DNA of 64,000 bases from a virus, in the IMG/VR virus record IMGVR_UViG_3300027763_000050, positions 1 to 64,000 of that record. One strand, written 5' to 3'. Each line of letters opens with the position of its first letter. Positions within the stretch are counted from its first letter, which is position 1. Below, in pieces: positions 6,677 through 49,125 of the stretch. Under the pieces are notes generated by a model. That model had not been told where the DNA came from, ran no database searches, and saw nothing but the letters and a program-made list of their open reading frames with translations. A program made the position numbers and the translations under genes.

Positions 6677-6719
6677 CCCTTACGGCTAGAGCCCAGTTGT
6701 AGCAAGGGTTCTGACTATG

Positions 6720-6763
6720 TGCGCTTTAGTTACATTCTCTAAAGAGAATGTAGACATAGCGCA
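6720..6763. other. Putative attP site of the serine integrase
   Basis: TGCGCT-ttagt-TACATTCTCT AA AGAGAATGTA-gacat-AGCGCA: 21-bp arms, 17/21 symmetric around central AA (6741-6742), 28 nt upstream of the integrase ATG. Confidence 0.7.
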
Positions 6764-6791
6764 GAATAGGTGGGGACTGAGTTTTGGGGCG

Positions 6792-8096
6792 ATGAGGCTA
6801 GGTTACGCGAGGTGCTCCACGGACGAGCAAGAGGGCGCCCTGCAAGCACAGATCCTGCGCCTGGAGCAGGCTGGATGCGACACGGTGATCTCTGAGCTCG
6901 TGTCTGGCCGGAAGAACGACCGGGAAGGGATCCTCGAGGCGGCCGCGCTGGTCAAGGCAGGCAAAGTCAAGGAGCTGGTAGTTACACGGGTAGACCGGCT
7001 GGGCAGGGACGCAGCTAACACCGATCTACTGCTGGCCTTATGCGCCGAGAAGCAGGTCGAGGTGTCTGCGCTGGATGGTGGCGTGATCGAGACCGCTAGT
7101 CCCCAGGGGTTTCTGATGGCAAGGCTGCATACCTCCCTGGCTGAGATGGAGAGCCGGATGCTGTCCATGAGAATCAAAAAGGCAATGGTCGTCCATAGAC
7201 AACAAGGGCGTCACCTTCGTCGGCGCAAACCATTTGGCTACATGGGCGGCCCAAATCATCAGTTAGTGCCAGACCCTAGTAATTGGGATCACGCCAAGAG
7301 AGTCCTACGGGAATTGAAAGAACGAGGAAGCTTTAGCAAAGTCAGCCAAACCTTGCCGGAATGGTGCCCGTGGACGCCAGCTACCAACTCCTTGCATTCC
7401 TGGTTCTGCAATCCAGTAATACGCGGACACCTTGGCCACCTAAGGGACGGCGGGCAGGGCTGGAAGAGCTACTACAAACAGATGCTGTATGACCAGCACG
7501 AACCGTTAATTTCAGAGACGGAGTGGCAAGCGCTTGCCGAAATCCTTAAAAGGGCTAGAAACAGGTTCCAGCCAAAGGATGACTCAAGAGTTGCCCATGC
7601 ATTGACGGGTGTGCTGAAGTGCGCAAATTGTGGTCACAATCTCAGGTACAACACATCAAACGGAACCGCTTGGTGGCGATGCCGTCATCGTCTATGTAAA
7701 GAAAGAGGAGGAATAAAGGAGGAAATTGCGCAGAATGTAGTTCTAGATGCCTGCATATTATCCGCAGATAACCTGGCCAAAATGATTGCAAACCCAGCCA
7801 AGGAAGACCCAGTGTTGGCCGCAAAACGTAAAGACCTGGCTGACCTGGAGGAACTTGCCAGGCGCTGGCCCGACGCCGTATCAACAGAGTCCCTGCGGCG
7901 TGAAATTGCGGATTTGGAAAGATGTGATAGATCGTCGATCGACCTTAAGCAGTTTAATATTTACCGAAGAATGATGAAGGATCCACAGTTTTATCGGGCT
8001 AGGCCAGACGAGTTGCATCCCGTGTTTCGCATGGTTTTACTCGAGGTACGAGTGGCGGCAGGTGGCGGCGCTGTAGCCGTGCCTCGTACCGTTTGA
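6792..8096 (+). CDS. Large serine recombinase (integrase)
   Basis: GYARCSTDEQ catalytic Ser motif, VTRVDRLGR, recombinase domain PFGY, zinc ribbon LTGVLKCANCG...WRC; start set at ATG 6792. Confidence 0.92.
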   Translation: MRLGYARCSTDEQEGALQAQILRLEQAGCDTVISELVSGRKNDREGILEAAALVKAGKVKELVVTRVDRLGRDAANTDLLLALCAEKQVEVSALDGGVIETASPQGFLMARLHTSLAEMESRMLSMRIKKAMVVHRQQGRHLRRRKPFGYMGGPNHQLVPDPSNWDHAKRVLRELKERGSFSKVSQTLPEWCPWTPATNSLHSWFCNPVIRGHLGHLRDGGQGWKSYYKQMLYDQHEPLISETEWQALAEILKRARNRFQPKDDSRVAHALTGVLKCANCGHNLRYNTSNGTAWWRCRHRLCKERGGIKEEIAQNVVLDACILSADNLAKMIANPAKEDPVLAAKRKDLADLEELARRWPDAVSTESLRREIADLERCDRSSIDLKQFNIYRRMMKDPQFYRARPDELHPVFRMVLLEVRVAAGGGAVAVPRTV

Positions 8097-38933: not shown

Positions 38934-39159
38934 GGTTAACAAAGGAAACAGCACGGTTGAAAGACCCATCAGAGACGAATCGTTGAGCCCCTCGGCGAAG
39001 ATGGGCGCGGATATTACGAATGGAGCGAGTGGAAATACGCCTGCCAAAAGGAATGATCCCTTTGGTGCTAGTAATAGTGTGAGTAAGGCGCCAGTGTTTG
39101 GAGCCAGCGGTTATGTCGTAGCCGAGGGAGCGGGCTTCTTTGATGAGGTCAGCGGACAT
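38911..39159 (-). CDS. HicA-like small basic protein
   Basis: LIKEARSLGY...GSKHWRLTH......IP......R..RNI. Confidence 0.6.
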   Translation of the reverse strand: MSADLIKEARSLGYDITAGSKHWRLTHTITSTKGIIPFGRRISTRSIRNIRAHLRRGAQRFVSDGSFNRAVSFVNHDNSRAT

Positions 39160-40811: not shown

Positions 40812-41177
40812 TTATGCGACGGGGATAGCGAGCTTGGCTTCCTCTGCGGCACGGAGACCGGCGGCAGTGGCGTCCTTCTCGACCTTGGCCATCAGCGCTG
40901 CGGTGTAGACCTGCTTGGCGGAGATGGCGTGGACGGCGTTGCCCTGTTTGACGAGCTTGCCGAAATAGAGAGTGCCGGTGTTAGGGCACTCAAATGTGTC
41001 GGCGGGGTTATCAGCGCCAAGGGATGCAATGGCATGCTCGGATTTGAAGCCGGCACGAACAGCGGTTTCCCTGCGGGCAAGACCACCCTCGTCACGGGAT
41101 ACATATGCGAGCTCAACAGATGACCAATTGTCACCAGCGAATGCACGAAAACGGAGAGGACCAAGAGATAGATTCAT
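40812..41177 (-). CDS. Hypothetical protein
   Basis: Preceded by a degenerate copy of the early repeat element. Confidence 0.65.
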   Translation of the reverse strand: MNLSLGPLRFRAFAGDNWSSVELAYVSRDEGGLARRETAVRAGFKSEHAIASLGADNPADTFECPNTGTLYFGKLVKQGNAVHAISAKQVYTAALMAKVEKDATAAGLRAAEEAKLAIPVA

Positions 41178-41266
41178 GTGATGCGCTGCCGTGAGTAAGG
41201 AAATTGCACGGTTGAAAAGGCGCAAATAAAAAATCCCTAGACTGGGCAAAGAGAGTTCACAAATTT

Positions 41267-41782
41267 ATGCTCGGCCAAAACAAATCAGGGCTGTCTGGCT
41301 TAGATCAGCGCATTGCAAAAGAAGCGGCAACCCGGGCCGATGCATATGGGCAAGCTGGCCGTGCTGCCAGATTGGAAGAACTAAAAGGACGCGACAACGA
41401 AAGCCTTGCCGCCCAACTGCGTGGTGCATTGCAGAACAAGGGTGACAGTTACCGTACGCAGGTCATGCTTGGCGGCGACGGTGATGTGCCCATGGACGCA
41501 ATGACAGGCAGGAACGGGCTAGATCAGGCCGAGTTAGTGAAATTCCTAGCTGGCCTTGCTCCCGCTGAGCGTCAAGACCTTTTAGCCCGGATGTCAGGTC
41601 AGCAGACTGGTGTGCTGGAAGGTATCAATCGGATGCTGGCTGGTGATAATCAAGTTGGCAAGATCAGCCGGGGCGCTGCGATAGGCGGCATTGGTGTTGG
41701 CACTGGGCTTGGTTTGACTGCTGCCGGCAAGGGATTGATTGACTTGATGGAATATTTACAGGAAGGCCAAGGGGCGCAATAA
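41267..41782 (+). CDS. Gly/Ala-rich putative virion protein
   Basis: TAGACT box; glycine-zipper C-terminus like the 49-55 kb block. Confidence 0.65.
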   Translation: MLGQNKSGLSGLDQRIAKEAATRADAYGQAGRAARLEELKGRDNESLAAQLRGALQNKGDSYRTQVMLGGDGDVPMDAMTGRNGLDQAELVKFLAGLAPAERQDLLARMSGQQTGVLEGINRMLAGDNQVGKISRGAAIGGIGVGTGLGLTAAGKGLIDLMEYLQEGQGAQ

Positions 41783-41973
41783 TGCTGGATGAGGTCGTGA
41801 TTGTGGACTTTAAGCCCACCGAACGAGAGTGCGAATTGTGGTGGAAAGTCCGCCGCTCGCTAGAAGCCAATGGAAAAACGTCCTGCCATTACTACACAAT
41901 GGCGCTGGAATATACCGGCAAGTGCGGCGGGCTTGAGAGTAAAGTTAAAGCAGAGGTTGGCAATGGATCCTAG
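41782..41973 (+). CDS. Small hypothetical protein
   Basis: W.KV..SLE..GKT.C.YY motif; coupled start. Confidence 0.6.
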   Translation: MLDEVVIVDFKPTERECELWWKVRRSLEANGKTSCHYYTMALEYTGKCGGLESKVKAEVGNGS

Positions 41974-42592
41974 GTTTGCTGGCGACATCTTTAGTGATGA
42001 ATGGGATCGCGTTGGCGGCCAAGGTATAAACGATCCGCCGTCCAAGTTCCGCCGGCAAGGTGGCCCAGAACAAGTATCTATTGAGTCAGGAAAAACCTGG
42101 AGCAAGTCATTCCCTGCAGATGCAGTCAAAGAAAATCTTGAGGACTCGGCGAGAGAGGCCGGGTATGTAGGCGCAGGCAGACAAGTAATAAATGCGCTGA
42201 CTAACGGGTCGTTGAACTTTAAAGACGATACTGGCAGCATTGGCGTTTATCCTGGCGGTTTTAGTGTGCGCAGCAAGAATGGCTGGGGTGTAAATGTTGA
42301 TGTGCCAAGTCAGTCAGCAAACGTAAACGTCGGCAACGTAAATATTCAGGGTGGATTTGGCGCCAACCCCAACGTCAAGATTGGGTTACAATTCCCTGCC
42401 CCAAGCGTCGACCAAGGTGGCGGCAATCAAATGGTTAATCCCAGCCATCAGCTTGATCAACAGTTGAGGCAGTACGAACCAAGGCAAAAGGCAAAAGCGG
42501 TTGATACTGGCTGGCAATTGAGGGATGAGCTGGAGTCACGCAGAAGTAATCAAGGTTTACTAGAAAAATTGATCGGGCGCGGGCTTATTTGA
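41963..42592 (+). CDS. Hypothetical protein with beta-rich segment
   Basis: GAGG RBS; MDPRFAG start. Confidence 0.6.
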   Translation: MDPRFAGDIFSDEWDRVGGQGINDPPSKFRRQGGPEQVSIESGKTWSKSFPADAVKENLEDSAREAGYVGAGRQVINALTNGSLNFKDDTGSIGVYPGGFSVRSKNGWGVNVDVPSQSANVNVGNVNIQGGFGANPNVKIGLQFPAPSVDQGGGNQMVNPSHQLDQQLRQYEPRQKAKAVDTGWQLRDELESRRSNQGLLEKLIGRGLI

Positions 42593-42782
42593 GCAACTGT
42601 ACTGGTCTGCGACGACACGGCAGATCCAGGGTTTGTCCGGGGGACTCGCCCAGACGAATGCGTTGCTTGCCCGCATTGTGACATGGCCGGGCCCAAGGTA
42701 CATGGCAATACAGGAAAGAGAAGAGCAGACAAAGTTAATCATGTGAAAGTGTTGAGTAAGATGTGGTAAGTGTTAAGCGGTA

Positions 42783-42986
42783 ATGGAACTTAGATTTGCT
42801 GGCACGGAGCTCGACAAGGAGCTAGGCCTCGGGTTTCAAGGGCTTGGGGATTTGAGTAAGTTAATCCCTCGCCAAAGAATTGAGCATCCTCGGCTGCCGG
42901 GGTTAACACTTGGCGATGATTCAGTGCCCGAGAACGCAGGGCCGGGTTATGACGGTACGACGCCTGGATTTACTTACGGGGCTTAG
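42783..42986 (+). CDS. Small hypothetical protein
   Basis: MELRFAG N-terminus like other late genes. Confidence 0.5.
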   Translation: MELRFAGTELDKELGLGFQGLGDLSKLIPRQRIEHPRLPGLTLGDDSVPENAGPGYDGTTPGFTYGA

Positions 42987-42996
42987 GACAACCGGC

Positions 42997-43182
42997 TTAG
43001 TCGAGATCGACGCTGGTATTGAAGTCTTGCTCAGGTTGCGCTCCGTCGTAAAGCTCAACAACAAGGTCTCCGTCAAAGCCCTGGCTGAGGATAAGTTCAT
43101 CGCCGGCCACCCATCCGAGCTGATCGAGAATGCCTTTGGGTAAGGGGAGGAATCCGTCGTCGTCAACAACCAGAGTTGGCAT
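42997..43182 (-). CDS. AbrB/MazE/SpoVT-like DNA-binding protein
   Basis: DDDG.LPLPKGILDQLGWVAGDEL motif. Confidence 0.75.
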   Translation of the reverse strand: MPTLVVDDDGFLPLPKGILDQLGWVAGDELILSQGFDGDLVVELYDGAQPEQDFNTSVDLD

Positions 43183-43253
43183 GTTGCAAGATGCATATTG
43201 CACAAGGTAACAAGAAAAAAACCCCGCCCAGAAAACTCCGAGCGGGGCATGGA

Positions 43254-43472
43254 TCAGACGGGCTCGAGCATGAACTCGCGCATGAAGTCTTCCTCGCGGT
43301 CGGCAAGGAAATCAAGGAGGTCAGCCTTAGTGAACTCGTCTTCCTCGATCACCATCGGTAAGAATCCGAATTGGGACTCGAGCTGAAAGCCAACCTCGCC
43401 AATGAATGCGGGGCTGCCTTCGTAAAAAACTTCCTGACCATTGGGCCAGGCGGTAAGACGGAGAAATGTCAT
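43254..43472 (-). CDS. Small acidic protein
   Basis: ATGA-coupled to upstream ORF, followed by a terminator at ~43213-43248. Confidence 0.6.
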   Translation of the reverse strand: MTFLRLTAWPNGQEVFYEGSPAFIGEVGFQLESQFGFLPMVIEEDEFTKADLLDFLADREEDFMREFMLEPV

Positions 43473-43615
43473 CGTGCTACTCCACCGAAGCGTGTGGTGA
43501 AGTAGTCGTTGCTGAAGGAGCGGCCTCTTTGCTGCGTAGAGACATAGCTCTCGGTCAGCATGGGACGTGGGCGGCGGCGTGCGCGGTCAATGTGAGCTGC
43601 TTGCAGGAGCGTCAT
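43469..43615 (-). CDS. 48-aa basic protein (repeat cassette)
   Basis: ATG just downstream of the repeat copy at 43637. Confidence 0.5.
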   Translation of the reverse strand: MTLLQAAHIDRARRRPRPMLTESYVSTQQRGRSFSNDYFTTRFGGVAR

Positions 43616-43713
43616 GGTCAAAGGAAATAAAGAACTGCACTGTTGAAAGAGTGCAAAGAAAAACCCTCCACCCCTGGGCCAGAGGAGTGGAGGGAGATTG
43701 CGGCTAGTTGGGA

Positions 43714-44154
43714 TCAGGCTTCTGGCTCGGCGACAGGGGCGGTGCGTTCCAGCGGTGAAAGCGAAGTAAGCACCCACTCGGAACAGCGGCGACCGTCTTG
43801 GGTGTGATAGGTGGACTCGAACGCGGTGATGGCGAGGAGAAACTCACCGGCTGCGTGAAGTTCAGCGAGCTTGGTGGCAAGGGGGCCGTTGCCGTTGTCA
43901 TAGGCGACGAGGTTCTTGGCTTGCCCGTAGGTGCGGCTGCCATCTCGCTGGCGCTGTCCTTTCTGGGCGGAAACCTTGGTGAAGGTTTTGCCAGTCGGGG
44001 TTTGGCCGGTGAAAATCTCGCGTTGAATCCAGAGGACCTGGCAGAGTTCGTCTCTGCGTTCTTCGGCAGGGGCAGTAGGCGCGGGTGTTGCAGCGAGCGC
44101 GGCTTCGAGTTCGATAACGCGCTGCTGGAGATCGGCTTTGGTCATGAGAGCCAT
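43714..44154 (-). CDS. Hypothetical protein, possible OB-fold (repeat cassette)
   Basis: Fills the interval between repeat copies. Confidence 0.7.
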   Translation of the reverse strand: MALMTKADLQQRVIELEAALAATPAPTAPAEERRDELCQVLWIQREIFTGQTPTGKTFTKVSAQKGQRQRDGSRTYGQAKNLVAYDNGNGPLATKLAELHAAGEFLLAITAFESTYHTQDGRRCSEWVLTSLSPLERTAPVAEPEA

Positions 44155-44263
44155 GGAAGAACCGGGTGATGTGCCCGGGGGAAAGGGAAATTGCACTGTT
44201 GAAAAAGTGCGTAAAAAGCCCCACGTCTGGGGCCGAGGAATTAGACAGCTGCAGGCGAAGGAG

Positions 44264-44617
44264 TCAGAAGGGGCGGCCGTCGAGGTAGTAGATAAAGGCG
44301 CTCGGTTTCATGCGCCCCTGCATGAGGAGATCAGCGTTGCGGCGGGTACTCGCGAGATGGTCAACAAAGGGCTCGCGAATGGAGAGATAGCGAGCGGTGA
44401 TGTCGTTGGCGGCAAGGGTTATGTATTCATCGCGGTTGGAGACGAGGTCCGTGATGAAATTGTTAGCGGCGTGAATGATCTTGCCGAGGATGTATCCGGC
44501 CACATAGAGGGCAGTTATAGCGGTGACCAGGTAGCGGGCAATGGTCTTGATAGCTGGTCCCCAGTCGGCTTTGGCGATCGAGGTTGCTTTGGCGGCGATG
44601 GCGTTGAAGTTTGGCAT
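44264..44617 (-). CDS. Membrane protein (repeat cassette)
   Basis: TM helix LVTAITALYVAGYILG; fills the repeat interval. Confidence 0.65.
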   Translation of the reverse strand: MPNFNAIAAKATSIAKADWGPAIKTIARYLVTAITALYVAGYILGKIIHAANNFITDLVSNRDEYITLAANDITARYLSIREPFVDHLASTRRNADLLMQGRMKPSAFIYYLDGRPF

Positions 44618-44719
44618 TGGCGGTAGTTGGGTGGTGTACCCAGGGGAAAGGGATTGCACTGTTGAAGAAGTGCAAAAGAAAATCCCCTCACCCCGGCGTG
44701 GAGTGAAGGGATGATGCGG

Positions 44720-44911
44720 TCACAAAACCATTTCAATCGAAGATTCCATCATCTCAGCAAAGCTAAGAATCTGAATTCCAACGGTACCTTGGACTCCATT
44801 ATTCAATTCAGGAGAATTGTGCATAAAGTCAAGCTGTGCGGCTTCTACTAATGCTTCTTCTTTGCATTCGCACAAACAAGCCTGTTGTCCGTTAGCAATT
44901 ACAAAGTACAC
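44720..44911 (-). CDS. 63-aa protein (repeat cassette)
   Basis: GTG start; stop immediately before the next terminator. Confidence 0.5.
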   Translation of the reverse strand: MYFVIANGQQACLCECKEEALVEAAQLDFMHNSPELNNGVQGTVGIQILSFAEMMESSIEMVL

Positions 44912-45018
44912 GTTAATGCTCCGTTGTGCGGTACCTATCTCCGCTGGGGTATTGCACTGTTGAAGAAGTGCAAAAGAAAATCCCCTCACCCCGGCGTGGA
45001 GTGAAGGGATGATGCGGG

Positions 45019-45150
45019 TCAAAGCATGCGAGCGCGGGTGCCGCATGTGGCGTAGAAGGCAATCATGTTCTGCGCCTCCGCAAGGGTGTTGAAGGACTGA
45101 GTCCTCCAGGCGCCGTTGCTGTAGGGCGGTTGAAAGGTGATCTTGAACAT
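45019..45150 (-). CDS. 43-aa protein MFKITFQPPYSNGAWRTQSF... (repeat cassette)
   Basis: Hand-translated; ATG abuts the repeat; WRTQSF.TL.EA..M..FY..CG resembles a small cyanophage family. Confidence 0.7.
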   Translation of the reverse strand: MFKITFQPPYSNGAWRTQSFNTLAEAQNMIAFYATCGTRARML

Positions 45151-45224
45151 TGCACTGTTGAAGAAGTACAAAAGAAAATCCCCTCACCCCGGCGTGGAGT
45201 GAAGGGACTCAGGAGCGGGGTAGA

Positions 45225-45407
45225 TCAGTAGCGGTAGCCGTAGGATTTGCAGAACTCGATATGAGCCTGGTGCTTGTCTGCGGGCCAGTCGTGGTGGGCA
45301 CATTGGGCAGCGGTGGCGGAATCGAGAGCTTTGACGCCTGCATTTGCGACGGCGGATACCGCTGCTGCTAGTGCCAGGGAGATCGCAGCGAAAAGGAGCT
45401 TGGACAT
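45225..45407 (-). CDS. 60-aa secreted/membrane protein (repeat cassette)
   Basis: Signal-peptide-like N-terminus; ATG abuts the repeat. Confidence 0.7.
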   Translation of the reverse strand: MSKLLFAAISLALAAAVSAVANAGVKALDSATAAQCAHHDWPADKHQAHIEFCKSYGYRY

Positions 45408-45482
45408 TTGCACTGTTGAAGAAGTACAAAAGAAAATCCCTCCACCCCGGGAAGGAGTGAAGGGACGGTGCTGTTAGCCAGG

Positions 45483-45653
45483 TCAGCCCGGTGTCCCAGG
45501 CAGCCATTCGGGGTAGCTGGCGTCCCCGGCAAGGTAATCAAGGAAGCGGCAGTACCGATCCATGCCTTCGTCTTCCGTCTCCGCCTTGGCCCAAAGTTCC
45601 TCGAGTGCTGCCCAGTCGGGCTCGTCGATGAATTGGCTGTTTGAACTGGACAT
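45483..45653 (-). CDS. 56-aa acidic protein (repeat cassette)
   Basis: ATG abuts the repeat. Confidence 0.65.
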   Translation of the reverse strand: MSSSNSQFIDEPDWAALEELWAKAETEDEGMDRYCRFLDYLAGDASYPEWLPGTPG

Positions 45654-45725
45654 TGCACTGTTGAAAAAGTACAAAAGAAAATCCCCTCACCCGGCGTGGA
45701 GTGAAGGGATGGTGTGGCGTGGAAT

Positions 45726-45899
45726 TTAGACGCGGTAATGGGGGAGGTTGGTGTCGTTTGCCGCCGCCGCCTGGAGTTGTGCTTCTGCTGTGTGTATTAA
45801 GTGCATGAGTAAATCCATGCGCTCGTGAAGTTCAGCGAGCTCTTGATGGTAGTGCTCAATGTTGAAACGGAGACAATCAGCGCTGGAAAGAACGAGCAT
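45726..45899 (-). CDS. 57-aa coiled-coil protein MLVLSSADCLRF... (repeat cassette)
   Basis: Hand-translated; ATG abuts the first repeat copy. Confidence 0.65.
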   Translation of the reverse strand: MLVLSSADCLRFNIEHYHQELAELHERMDLLMHLIHTAEAQLQAAAANDTNLPHYRV

Positions 45900-46465
45900 T
45901 GCACTGTTGAAAAAGTACAGAGCTAAGATTTAACTTACCGGCGCGGCGCGTAGATCATCAATGTGCAGAGGATATGCAGAGGAAACCTACACAAATAGGA
46001 CGCAATCGGAGGGGCAGAGTTGTAAATGGGGGTCATTATAGCACATCTCGAAAAGTTTTACGCGGCGAGCGTCGCGCCCGCGAGAATAATTAATGATAGC
46101 GGCGGAGCAAAAGTATAGGTTCTTAATTAACAACAACCGTGTTATTACTATATAACACTAACTCAGACTGAAAACGTGATTTTCCGTCGATTCTACGTGC
46201 GCGATAGGATCCATAGCACCTTTGCGTATTCTGATCTATTGAATTACGCGATACGAATTCAGATCAGACATATGTACGCAGTAGCCTACATTTAACTCGC
46301 GTATTCTTTCGCATACCTGCTACAACGCAGCACTTCACATGCTACGCGCGCGGCTTCCTAAGCACCCTTAAGCACTAGCAACAGCACATACGCAGTCTTA
46401 AGCATCCCCTGCTCTTGTGCCCCTCTCTCCTGTGCAGGGCAGTCTTCTCATGCTTTCGTACGTTC

Positions 46466-46563
46466 CCTCTCATCAGCGCGGGGCAGGTGACTCACTCGCT
46501 CCTCAACTGCTCAGGGCATGCTTCCTTCGCTCTCTCATACGCCTCTCATCAGCGCGGGGCAGG
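46466..46563 (+). repeat. 22-bp direct repeat CCTCTCATCAGCGCGGGGCAGG (46466-46487, 46542-46563)
   Basis: Read directly. Confidence 0.9.
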
Positions 46564-46836
46564 GGTCTGTGCTACAGAGCCTCTCGCGTTCTCAGGCGCA
46601 CTCGCACTCCTCGCTATGACAGGGGCGGTGCGTACCTTTTTTTTGTCTGGCAACCATCGGAACTTGACGGGGGTGTTTGATGTATTTCGCGCCGCCAAAA
46701 GTAAAAACGCCTTTCTATAGAGCCGCGCCACCGGGTACGAAATTGCGTATTTTTTGTACCCTATTTCAAAACACCTAGATACCGCCAGGTGTTTCGTTCT
46801 TTCTAAATTAGAGAAACGGAATAAATTTTCAAAAAA

Positions 46837-49125
46837 ATGGAGTCGCGGGAAAGTAAGCTCGGACGTCGCCTATCTCGCGAAGAATTCGAAGCATTACAGG
46901 CAGCTAAACAACAAGTTCAAGGCGCTCAATCCGCAATCGGTGGTATCGGTCAAATGCGCCCCGGCCTTGGCTTGCTGCCTCCCGCTGGCGAGCGTCGCTC
47001 AGAGTTAAGCGTCGCGGGTCTGCCGCCCCCGGGAACTTCGACTGAAAGCATCGATGGATATATCAAAGGTATGTACCCAGGTAGAGGAGAAGAAACGATT
47101 GCGCGACTAAGGGAGAGGGTTCCTTCCCGGAAGAAAGATGACGAACCTATAAGCGCAACAGACGTCATGATGCAGGTAAGGACAATCCCTGGCGCTTCCA
47201 TCTATGACCAAGGAAAAGACGTAAGCGGTTTTGTGCCAAGGCTTGAGCGAGCTGTCCAAGAGAACGCCGAAGGAAAGCAAGAACGAATGGAGGCAAGGCA
47301 GCGAGAATTGTCCGATCAACTTGCGGCCGAAGTTGCAGCCAATCCCGAGCTCGCTGAATTTCTTGGCCAAAAAAACGGCATGTTCACTCTGGACAGGGAA
47401 ACCGGCACTGCTGACCTGTCGCGATCCAATAACGACAAATACGGCGAATTTGCTTCCGAAGACCCAAGCGGATACAAGTATTCCTACCGCGGCGGCTCAG
47501 CTCCTTCTGAGTTGAACCCGTACGGCGGGATAGAAGTAACCGGCACAAACCGTCGCGATGTAAGGATTTACCCGGGCGATCCTGTGCTGACCCGTACAGG
47601 AGATCAAGATGACACGGCCTCCTTCCGGCGAGAGGAAGAGGTAACGCTTGGGAAACTAGCGCAAGAGCTTTCGAATGAATACAAGACTGAATCAATTACC
47701 CGTGGGGGATTGGTAAGGCTTCGGGATAAGGGCCTATTTAATCCGCTGCCAGTGGCACAGCGGGATCGGTCGTTGGTGGGCCATATCAGCCGGCTAGAGA
47801 GAGCTTCCAACCTCTCTGAAGACCAAGTCAGCCTGCTTGGACTAGACCCAAACATGCGGGTATTGAATCCAAACTCCATGGTTCGGGTGCCTGTCCCTGT
47901 TTTTGCCGTAACAAGGGTTGATCAAAATACTGGTGAAAGGGTGCCGGTTATTCAGCAAGAGACCGGTGAACCCTTATATAGAGTCGGCGAGCCTGTTAAC
48001 CGAGATCTGGACGCAATTCGCGACGAGCTACGTCCTTTTGTCCCCTCCGCTGCAGGGCAATTCAGTCAAGATGAGGTTCTGCGCCGTGGGTCAGAAAGTG
48101 CGGACCGTGAAAACGCTGCAAACGAACAGGCTCGGCAAAATAAACGGGCGGCGCTGCGAGGAAGAGCTGCTGAACAAGGCGGTACCGGCAGCTTCCAAGA
48201 CCTCCTAAAGGAGATTGTGGCCGGTGGTTTCATGGAGTCCGCCCCTGTCATATCTCCCGAGGCGGTAGATCGCCGTATCGCAAAGCTCAAGGCAGGTCTT
48301 ATCGCTAGGGCTGGAGAGGCTGGACCCATGATCTCGCAGGAACTTGGCGAAAATCGGACCCTAGATGAGCTGATTCGAGCAAGTTCCGCTCCACGGGGCC
48401 GCGAGGTGGACCTGTTCAGCGAAGAACCAATCGATGAAGCCCTGCTCCGAGCTCATAATCCACTGGAAGCGGACGAACAGCTCGGCGCCGAAATCCAGGG
48501 CTTGACCGCTAGAGGCTCCGGATTGGATACCTCGGAAGAAAATATGGCCAATTGGGCAGATATTGACTACTCACCAGAGAGCCGCGGTTACCAGATCGAG
48601 CAATTCGACCGTGACCCAGCCCGCCAGCCATGGAGGGAAACCTTTGTTGACCCCATTACCGGTAATCCTTACCCCAATCCACTGAAAAACCGCATTAACG
48701 CCCTTGAAGAGACAGCGCAAAAGCTGAATCCCCTTGCTGACGCCGCTCAAGTCGACTTGATGACCAAGGCAATGGAGCAGGAAATGGCTTACCGGCAGCG
48801 GATTGGCGCTCCCCGCTCCCAGGAGTCCATGGCCGACGCACGCACCACCGCACAGTCAGCGCTCAATGCCCCCGCGAGCGCCTCTGTGGCCCCCCAGGAA
48901 GTTGGTCAAGAGCTGTTCGCCCGCCCAGTTCGCACCTGGACCCCACCCAGGGAGCCCGATCAACTGCTGGCTGACTCAATTCGCTCTAAATACCAAAGGA
49001 CTGTCCCAGGAATGCGCGAGTTCTCCTACACAGGCCTTGCTGACGCACTTGGGGGAGAGGTCGGCGACCCCCAACAGGAAGCAGCCATGAAGTTTTTAGC
49101 TGAGCGCATCGCTCGGAGGCGCTGA
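46837..49125 (+). CDS. Large hypothetical protein (putative internal virion protein)
   Basis: 762-aa ORF opening the plus-strand block; no recognisable catalytic motif. Confidence 0.75.
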   Translation: MESRESKLGRRLSREEFEALQAAKQQVQGAQSAIGGIGQMRPGLGLLPPAGERRSELSVAGLPPPGTSTESIDGYIKGMYPGRGEETIARLRERVPSRKKDDEPISATDVMMQVRTIPGASIYDQGKDVSGFVPRLERAVQENAEGKQERMEARQRELSDQLAAEVAANPELAEFLGQKNGMFTLDRETGTADLSRSNNDKYGEFASEDPSGYKYSYRGGSAPSELNPYGGIEVTGTNRRDVRIYPGDPVLTRTGDQDDTASFRREEEVTLGKLAQELSNEYKTESITRGGLVRLRDKGLFNPLPVAQRDRSLVGHISRLERASNLSEDQVSLLGLDPNMRVLNPNSMVRVPVPVFAVTRVDQNTGERVPVIQQETGEPLYRVGEPVNRDLDAIRDELRPFVPSAAGQFSQDEVLRRGSESADRENAANEQARQNKRAALRGRAAEQGGTGSFQDLLKEIVAGGFMESAPVISPEAVDRRIAKLKAGLIARAGEAGPMISQELGENRTLDELIRASSAPRGREVDLFSEEPIDEALLRAHNPLEADEQLGAEIQGLTARGSGLDTSEENMANWADIDYSPESRGYQIEQFDRDPARQPWRETFVDPITGNPYPNPLKNRINALEETAQKLNPLADAAQVDLMTKAMEQEMAYRQRIGAPRSQESMADARTTAQSALNAPASASVAPQEVGQELFARPVRTWTPPREPDQLLADSIRSKYQRTVPGMREFSYTGLADALGGEVGDPQQEAAMKFLAERIARRR

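Follow-up and report, generated by a model that had tools for sequence, protein, structure and literature searches.

The 64,000-nucleotide stretch of virus DNA analysed here (the window) comprises bases 1–64000 of the 78,367-bp IMG/VR record IMGVR_UViG_3300027763_000050, which has an estimated completeness of 91%, and carries on its minus strand, between 43254 and 45920, an array of small genes separated by a repeated element. On balance, we take these repeats to be cassettes made of a terminator and a promoter-type signal, resembling the promoter-early stem-loop (PeSL) cassettes of T4-type myoviruses (Arbiol et al. 2010, PMC2839356; Comeau et al. 2014, PMC4122927), with a promoter part that would not be sigma-70-like and with genes that have been exchanged at the units. 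This reading builds on the anatomy of the units, their conservation across the clade, their positions, the replacement of cassettes at units and a conversion-like patch in one of them. The genome codes for a large terminase, a portal-like virion protein, a primase-helicase, a serine integrase and an endolysin. Judged by the terminase, the nearest named phage is Synechococcus phage S-EIVl (47% identity), and a megablast search of the DNA against named phages gave zero matches. The source phage is an uncultured S-EIV1-like cyanophage, a relative of Synechococcus phage S-EIV1. Gene direction is leftward between about 11.3 and 45.9 kb and rightward from 46.8 kb onwards, so that the array starts at a divergent control region of about 900 bp.

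Most units combine a predicted terminator with a recurrent motif

The core of the repeat is a 20-mer that occurs in eight copies, all on the minus strand (at 43636, 44192, 44655, 44953, 45151, 45409, 45654 and 45900) and spaced by 556, 463, 298, 198, 258, 245 and 246 bp. By chance, 0.02 matches are expected for such a 20-mer, and further copies were not found elsewhere in the 78,367-bp record. An earlier note on this DNA (the original prediction) had listed eight copies, all of which are present. Every copy is intergenic and has the same orientation as the gene downstream of it, and for seven of the eight, a G+C-rich stem and a T-tract stand ahead of the copy on the minus strand. The outermost copy (45898–45920) lacks a terminator, as the note had correctly stated; the sequence upstream of it forms no stable hairpin (−5.4 kcal/mol). 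The terminator stems comprise 12–15 pairs followed by the T-tract and fold with −19 to −30 kcal/mol (z-scores of −3.7 to −7), and termination is predicted at them. A terminator scan called 14 terminator-like sites in the region compared to 4.3 expected, including six of the seven unit terminators; the seventh, located before the gene c7 (the genes being numbered c1 to c9 leftward from the control region), folds at −19 kcal/mol. One terminator sequence is common to five units, different stems are found in two (43664–43694 and 44218–44234), and units 5 and 6 share 99% identity along 70 nt, a stretch that extends from a stop codon to the start of the following gene.

The open reading frames (ORFs) downstream of the units encode 43–146 amino acids (aa), none of the cassette products has a match in Pfam or PHROG, and six of the eight cassettes are without a homologue in any fetched relative. 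Compared to a 97%-identical strain, which is represented by three metagenome contigs, the ORFs differ by 48 synonymous and 19 nonsynonymous changes. Hence, the small ORFs are as a set under purifying selection, and judging by this pattern of changes they are real genes.

The motif is conserved in a subclade of S-EIV1-like phages

To describe the repeat in related phages, the best 80 of 110 related viral stretches from a portal search were kept, and the regions beside the homologous control region were fetched from five large relatives (G001–G005). All five contain arrays of 4–13 units of the same design, in which a G+C-rich terminator stem and a T-run are followed at rigid spacing by an ungapped motif. 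With positions counted from the first base after it, the motif consists of TG at −20/−19, C at −16, T-T at −12/−11 and CA-N-CAGTGCA at −10 to −1, with T-T after it, which corresponds to a compact form of about 23 bases, TG-N2-C-N5-CA-N-CAGTGCA. Among 52 copies from six genomes, the TG is present in 49–51 and the C at −16 in 45, and both keep a fixed, ungapped spacing relative to the core and to the T-run and GGGG upstream of it. The motif is kept although the relatives differ widely in base composition. A matrix trained solely on the other genomes recovers exactly nine copies in the genome studied here, with scores of 21–26 bits, while the maximum reached in five shuffled genomes under the same matrix was 14 bits.

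The ninth of these copies (41203–41225, minus strand, 21.9 bits) has no strong terminator and opens the next leftward operon; the ATG of a clade-conserved gene follows after 27 nt. This copy lies within a divergent region of about 90 bp between the genes at 40812–41177 (minus strand) and 41267–41782 (plus strand). A degenerate copy lies at about 38950–38959. The proposal in the original prediction that the second element of the repeat is a 5′ signal in its own right holds up, in that the motif is conserved across the clade and can head a transcription unit with no terminator in front of it. All copies are confined to one genome arm.

A stricter pattern retrieved 21 stretches belonging to about 15 contigs from IMG/VR; several of these were contigs already known from the portal search, and most others measured 66–85 kb. 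In each of 14 newly fetched stretches, the hits (74 in total) fell on one strand only. The motif-bearing relatives are S-EIV1-like phages, mostly of 56–85 kb, whose portal proteins are 63–75% identical to that of the phage studied here. The motif is absent from S-EIVl, in which no uniform unit of such a kind was found. In 596 Gb of prokaryote genomes (185,579 species genomes), the pattern yielded 69 stretches; apart from two stretches on one contig, these were single scattered hits in unrelated taxa, and none of them was cyanobacterial. Since S-EIVl lacks the motif and the prokaryote hits are of this scattered kind, it is a hallmark of a subclade and belongs neither to the host nor to all S-EIV1-like phages. 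Use of the motif by a host or a prophage was rejected, as the species genomes contributed scattered singles and one mis-binned phage contig. This 34-kb contig (PAZU01000030.1; L160, L176) is part of a metagenome-assembled genome of a Methanobacteriota archaeon, carries at least nine terminator-plus-motif units with the ATG at +1 to +3, and is almost certainly a mis-binned phage contig of this clade. In addition, two relatives possess two or three tandem 11-bp repeats that resemble the motif core with GTAC replacing GTGC (L101, 2006–2027; L102, 3462–3494). They are located directly upstream of the first motif copy in L102 and about 520 nt upstream of it in L101, and might be bound by the same protein that reads the motif.

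Position of the motif suggests a promoter-type signal

We then related the motif to the gene starts. In 62 copies, the distance from motif to start codon falls into classes of 0–6 (about 20 copies), 15–21, 36–43 and 52–59 nt, and a Shine-Dalgarno-like word was flagged in three of the 62. That the ATG follows within 0–1 nt in four copies of the window without a Shine-Dalgarno sequence had been noticed before and is true for c1–c4; among the cassettes, only c5 has a GGAG ribosome-binding site. The N-terminus of the c3 product resembles a signal peptide and thereby places the ATG at +1, so that the start site of its transcript should lie at or before the motif end. The motif is the constant part of this arrangement and the leader the variable part. 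Discrete, conserved types of 5′ leader recur after the motif (in L101, L103, L104 and L112, and at 44618–44654 and 44155–44191 of the window), none with a Shine-Dalgarno sequence. One type measures about 19 nt, is pyrimidine-rich and ends in CG-ATG; another measures about 37 nt, contains a TTCTTTC-like run and a small CCGG hairpin, and is also found before c6 and c7. Taken together, the strong terminators, the start codons at the motif edge and the missing Shine-Dalgarno sequences suggest widespread leaderless expression in a cyanophage.

Since a strong terminator stands ahead of nearly every copy, little read-through into the downstream genes is to be expected. The first copies of the arrays stand at the edge of the divergent control region. 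In six genomes, the ninth copy is found in a short intergenic region between divergent genes, where just two blocks are conserved, the motif itself and a TAGAAT/TAGACT −10-like box for the gene on the opposite strand. Because the gene of the ninth copy is out of reach of co-directional read-through, it needs its own promoter in this region, and because ordinary −10 boxes occur in the same region, the motif represents a different class of signal. In five G+C-rich relatives, the 420 nt that precede the first copy did not contain a consensus-like −10 box according to a restricted pattern search.

The motif itself does not contain a TAnnnT −10 box at the expected spacing, in agreement with the original prediction; the hexamer at −12 to −7 reads T-T-C-A-N-C, and a TTG-like hexamer lies only 3 nt upstream of it. 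Sigma-70, extended −10 and sigma-54 layouts were compared to the motif logo by hand and rejected, as their spacings misfit. The boxes of NtcA (GTA-N8-TAC), CRP-like proteins and cyanobacterial LexA, compared by eye in their familiar forms, did not fit across the genomes. A likeness of the T-run and core to the V(D)J heptamer and nonamer is superficial and was dismissed as coincidence.

Under the PeSL-like reading, the intrinsic terminator would end the transcript of the upstream gene, and the ~23-bp motif, at a fixed distance after it, would serve as a clade-specific promoter-type signal from whose end, or a few bases from it, transcription of the next gene would start. Many cassette mRNAs would hence be leaderless or nearly so, and others would have short leaders lacking a Shine-Dalgarno sequence. 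The motif is presumably read by the host polymerase together with a specificity factor, for which an alternative factor of the host, a small phage protein that escaped recognition and a protein brought in by the virion are candidates. The units, being 60–80 bp long and in direct orientation, would allow homologous recombination or gene conversion to replace, add or delete single ORFs.

Several points weigh against this reading. We infer promoter activity from the position and conservation of the motif only, and the start site and what recognises the motif are likewise deductions. The motif lacks the A at −11 and the T at −7 of a sigma-70 −10 element, and its invariant TG..C and G..CA complement each other, as would be equally fitting for the site of a dimeric DNA-binding protein. 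A putative extended −10 type, sigma-70 promoter-like box (TGn plus TATAAT, as read from the sequence) is located at 46035–46043 on the minus strand, 134 nt upstream of the first motif copy, and read-through transcription of at least the first cassette from this box by the host polymerase is possible; in this case, the motif class might rely on a phage product made early and would not be 'early' itself. The early timing and the host-takeover role named in the original prediction are assumptions. The first copy would need a factor that is present at the moment of infection, and Pfam and PHROG scans of about 60 ORFs, including 10 ORFs of the cassette region, revealed neither a phage RNA polymerase nor a sigma factor. 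Finally, the 97%-identical contigs show no gain or loss of a cassette, their gene content being fixed.

A more specific version, which we put forward as a tentative possibility, is that the motif is the promoter of an unrecognised transcription system in a widespread clade of S-EIV1-like cyanophages, whose factor or polymerase would be unlike the sigma-70, T7 and N4 types and possibly delivered with the virion, with transcripts starting at the start codon. If true, these phages would have a programme of their own for leaderless expression, in which terminators insulate each gene from the next. A six-frame search with PF00940 for a T7-like RNA polymerase gave no match, and its controls were silent too. 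A gene for a giant virion polymerase was not found among the scanned ORFs, of which the longest unexplained one encodes 762 aa; two ORFs of more than 1100 aa at the record ends are tail-fibre-like, with homologues of 793–1046 aa in the relatives.

Alternative roles of the motif

The motif could alternatively act at the RNA level, a role that we consider unlikely. Here, the array would be one transcript from the box at 46035–46043 with leaky or suppressed termination, and the motif would be a processing, stability or translation-start signal that gives rise to monocistronic mRNAs starting near the AUG. Early mRNAs of T7 are indeed processed between genes by host RNase III, and in the window the extended −10 box lies upstream of the first copy and the start codon abuts the motif. 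Seven strong serial terminators would, however, leave almost no read-through, the ninth copy stands behind a divergent gene where no co-directional transcript arrives, and no consensus-like upstream −10 box was found in the five relatives by pattern search. Nor did Rfam 15 return a family match; its two hits were both sub-threshold and located at the closing terminator of the array (E 0.34 and 0.67).

The argument for an RNA element further rests on the hairpin into which the motif folds in seven copies here, with a 7-bp stem and an 8-nt loop, and in which the original prediction had noticed that a C/T variant keeps pairing as U.G. Across 62 copies from eight genomes, however, 76% of the cells are paired compared to 74% with shuffled partners, compensatory pairs are no more frequent than by chance, and 34 of 61 distinct copies have a broken middle pair. 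Conservation is lacking in the 5′ arm and, in the relatives, also in the AAC-containing loop. In the 97%-identical strain, seven clustered changes in the unit before c4 abolish pairing and keep every invariant base. Since the pairing is not conserved but the invariant bases are kept, it is the sequence that is conserved and not the structure; the perfect palindrome seen here is one variant of the 5′ half of the motif. A conserved RNA hairpin was thus rejected on the basis of the pairing frequencies and of the near-identical strain without pairing.

A protein-binding site without promoter function of its own, comparable to an operator or stoperator and accompanied by weak, unrecognised promoters, is also improbable in our view; a regulator of the phage or the host would bind there and turn the cassette genes on or off. 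Mycobacteriophage stoperators and start-associated sequences are short, asymmetric and oriented intergenic motifs near gene starts or stops, and the motif shares its asymmetry, orientation and intergenic location with them; the make-up of its columns moreover reveals a partial dyad symmetry (TG..C / G..CA). Known stoperators are spread over both arms of temperate phages with a cognate repressor, whereas the copies described here are limited to one arm and tied to a terminator at fixed spacing, and no repressor was identified. While the phage has a serine integrase and a small AbrB/MazE-like protein next to the array, the integrase is absent from three complete array-bearing relatives, the AbrB-like gene was not found in the fetched relatives, and the motif thus also occurs in relatives without this integrase. 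The tandem GTAC look-alikes upstream of the first copy in two relatives would fit a bound protein; on the other hand, nothing else is conserved as a promoter, and the ATG lies within 0–6 nt in about 20 copies.

Cassettes are exchanged at the repeat units

Returning to the PeSL-like reading, we compared the segments between units in translation. The relatives share the families S, M, V, E, T, R and N in collinear order, with lineage-specific cassettes between the shared ones. G001 contains S-V-E-T and G002 S-M-E-T, L112 holds both M and V, and G003 has three extra cassettes. Between G001 and G002, homology breaks off about 35 nt past a motif core and returns about 47 nt ahead of the following core, at the start of its terminator; hence, the ORF alone has been exchanged. 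Between G003 and L112, homology stops at the motif. Differences in gene content with breakpoints at repeats, which the original prediction had named as a test, were thus found in both genome pairs and in the family map.

The seven clustered changes in unit 4 of the 97%-identical strain look like gene conversion between copies. The three contigs of this strain (L107, L108 and L109, compared to 41170–46733) begin or end in or near repeat units; the repeats thus seem to break short-read assemblies, and such arrays are probably under-represented in assembled viromes.

Site-specific recombination, with integron-like or other recombinase-driven cassettes and the repeats as crossover sites, is very improbable: small, dense and unrelated ORFs are split by ~60-bp repeats with inverted-repeat character and cassette content varies among relatives, but the inverted repeat represents a canonical terminator followed by its T-tract, every cassette carries an expression signal of its own whereas integron cassettes are promoterless, the shared cassettes are collinear, and no recombinase lies beside the array, whose neighbours are ORFans. 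The only integrase is of the serine type (6717–8096, 37 kb from the array) and is lacking in most relatives, including three complete ones with arrays. Integrons possess the tyrosine integrase IntI with attI and a common promoter beside the array, a layout that the array described here does not show, and the paired core sites of attC are absent as well. Of the integron-like shuffling suggested originally, the variable content with breaks in the repeats therefore stands, and a neighbouring recombinase and an attC architecture do not. Homologous recombination or gene conversion between the repeats fits better than a site-specific recombinase.

Comparison to known repeat systems

The units share with PeSL cassettes the composite of a terminator stem-loop and a promoter motif in many copies within a region of small ORFans (8 + 1 copies here), the layout of every gene as its own expression unit, breakpoints between related genomes that fall in repeats, and a unit sequence that varies from lineage to lineage. 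A further feature of PeSL cassettes are excised mini-circles that arise by exchange between adjacent repeats. In contrast to them, the promoter half lacks the −35/N17/−10 layout of sigma-70 promoters, which is a defining PeSL feature, the start codon often abuts the motif in a leaderless layout, and the phage is an S-EIV1-like cyanophage and not a T4-like myovirus. Hence, the PeSL analogy of the original prediction applies to the terminator, the small-ORFan region and the breakpoints at repeats, and fails for the sigma-70-like promoter. The dense PeSL pattern was explicitly not seen in the T4-like cyanophage S-PM2 (PMC4503421).

Repeated viral intergenic sequences also act as promoters in halovirus HF2, where intergenic repeats carry the promoters of successive transcription units (PMC8707807). 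HF2 is an archaeal virus with AT-rich repeat motifs, and we saw no coupled terminator or cassette replacement described for it. With promoters of the N4 and T7 types, the motif has in common that a compact sequence of ~20–25 bp is conserved up to the presumed start site, unlike in sigma-70 promoters. The N4 hairpin, however, has a 5–7 bp stem with a 3-nt loop and is used by a giant virion polymerase, while the hairpin here has an 8-nt loop and is not conserved; with no giant virion polymerase found, the proposed analogy to N4 hairpin promoters did not hold. Likewise, no T7-like polymerase was detected in the scanned ORFs (~60).

In the papers accessible to our search, no description of such units was found for S-EIV1-like phages. 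Modular exchange at terminator-promoter repeats had been described for T4-type phages; here, it has evolved or is maintained in phages unrelated to them, together with what is probably another type of promoter. Although S-EIV1-like phages abound in lakes and seas, hardly any of their genes and signals have been explained. A clade signature of ~23 bases that marks the starts of small ORFans offers a handle for annotation and for finding the factor that reads the motif, and the motif is a candidate for a compact, portable expression unit in Synechococcus.

Units, genes and surroundings of the array

All units lie on the minus strand. Unit 1 (45898–45920) consists of the motif only and scores 23.3 bits with the matrix. 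Unit 2 (45652–45710) combines an intrinsic terminator at 45681–45710 with a motif at 45652–45674, unit 3 (45407–45466) has its terminator at 45436–45466, and unit 4 (45149–45210), in which the seven clustered differences of the 97%-identical strain are located, at 45176–45210. The terminators of unit 5 (44951–45010) and unit 6 (44653–44712) lie at 44980–45010 and 44682–44712, respectively. Unit 7 (44190–44234; motif 21.2 bits) has the different, short terminator at 44218–44234 that folds with −19 kcal/mol, and unit 8 (43634–43694) a terminator with compensated stem changes at 43664–43694. The closing intrinsic terminator of the array, called in the terminator scan, is situated at 43221–43248.

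The genes likewise lie on the minus strand. The ORFans c1 (45726–45899, 57 aa) and c2 (45483–45653, 56 aa) start with an ATG at 0 nt after the motif. The product of c3 (45225–45407, 60 aa, ATG at +1) begins with the signal-peptide-like segment and belongs to family S, with homologues in 17 loci. The ORFan c4 (45019–45150, 43 aa, ATG at 0 nt) shows three synonymous and zero nonsynonymous strain changes, and c5 (44720–44911, 63 aa) uses a GTG start 41 nt after the motif, served by the GGAG site. Leaders of 37 nt precede the ORFan c6 (44264–44617, 117 aa) and c7 (43714–44154, 146 aa), the latter a member of family T, which is conserved in the arrays of relatives. Behind the last unit, c8 (43469–43615, 48 aa) and c9 (43254–43472, 72 aa) overlap by 4 nt.

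In the divergent control region, a 7-bp inverted repeat surrounds an AT-rich centre at 46131–46150, and three direct repeats of about 27 nt (46422–46568, spacings 44 and 76) lie upstream of the first rightward gene; these may be operators or origin-type repeats. The rightward gene itself (46837–49125, plus strand) encodes the 762-aa protein, which is rich in charged and low-complexity segments and has no Pfam or PHROG match. Homologues of 782–1084 aa and about 30% identity occupy the same position in five of the five relatives examined. A search for close relatives via this protein or the c7 protein returned only a fragment of the same phage.

Directly past the closing terminator, a 68-aa AbrB/MazE-type (SpoVT-AbrB) DNA-binding protein is encoded at 42997–43203 on the minus strand (Pfam E 3e-5, just under the cut-off). 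No homologue of it was present among the fetched relatives, and it may represent a regulator or else an antitoxin that lacks an obvious partner. Further leftward, two plus-strand genes encoding 171 and 240 aa (41267–42592) are embedded within the leftward region. The 171-aa gene is conserved at 11 related loci and at each of them diverges from the conserved gene at 40812–41177; it has a conserved TAGACT/TAGAAT box about 30 nt before its ATG, and the C-terminus of its product resembles a glycine-zipper membrane segment.

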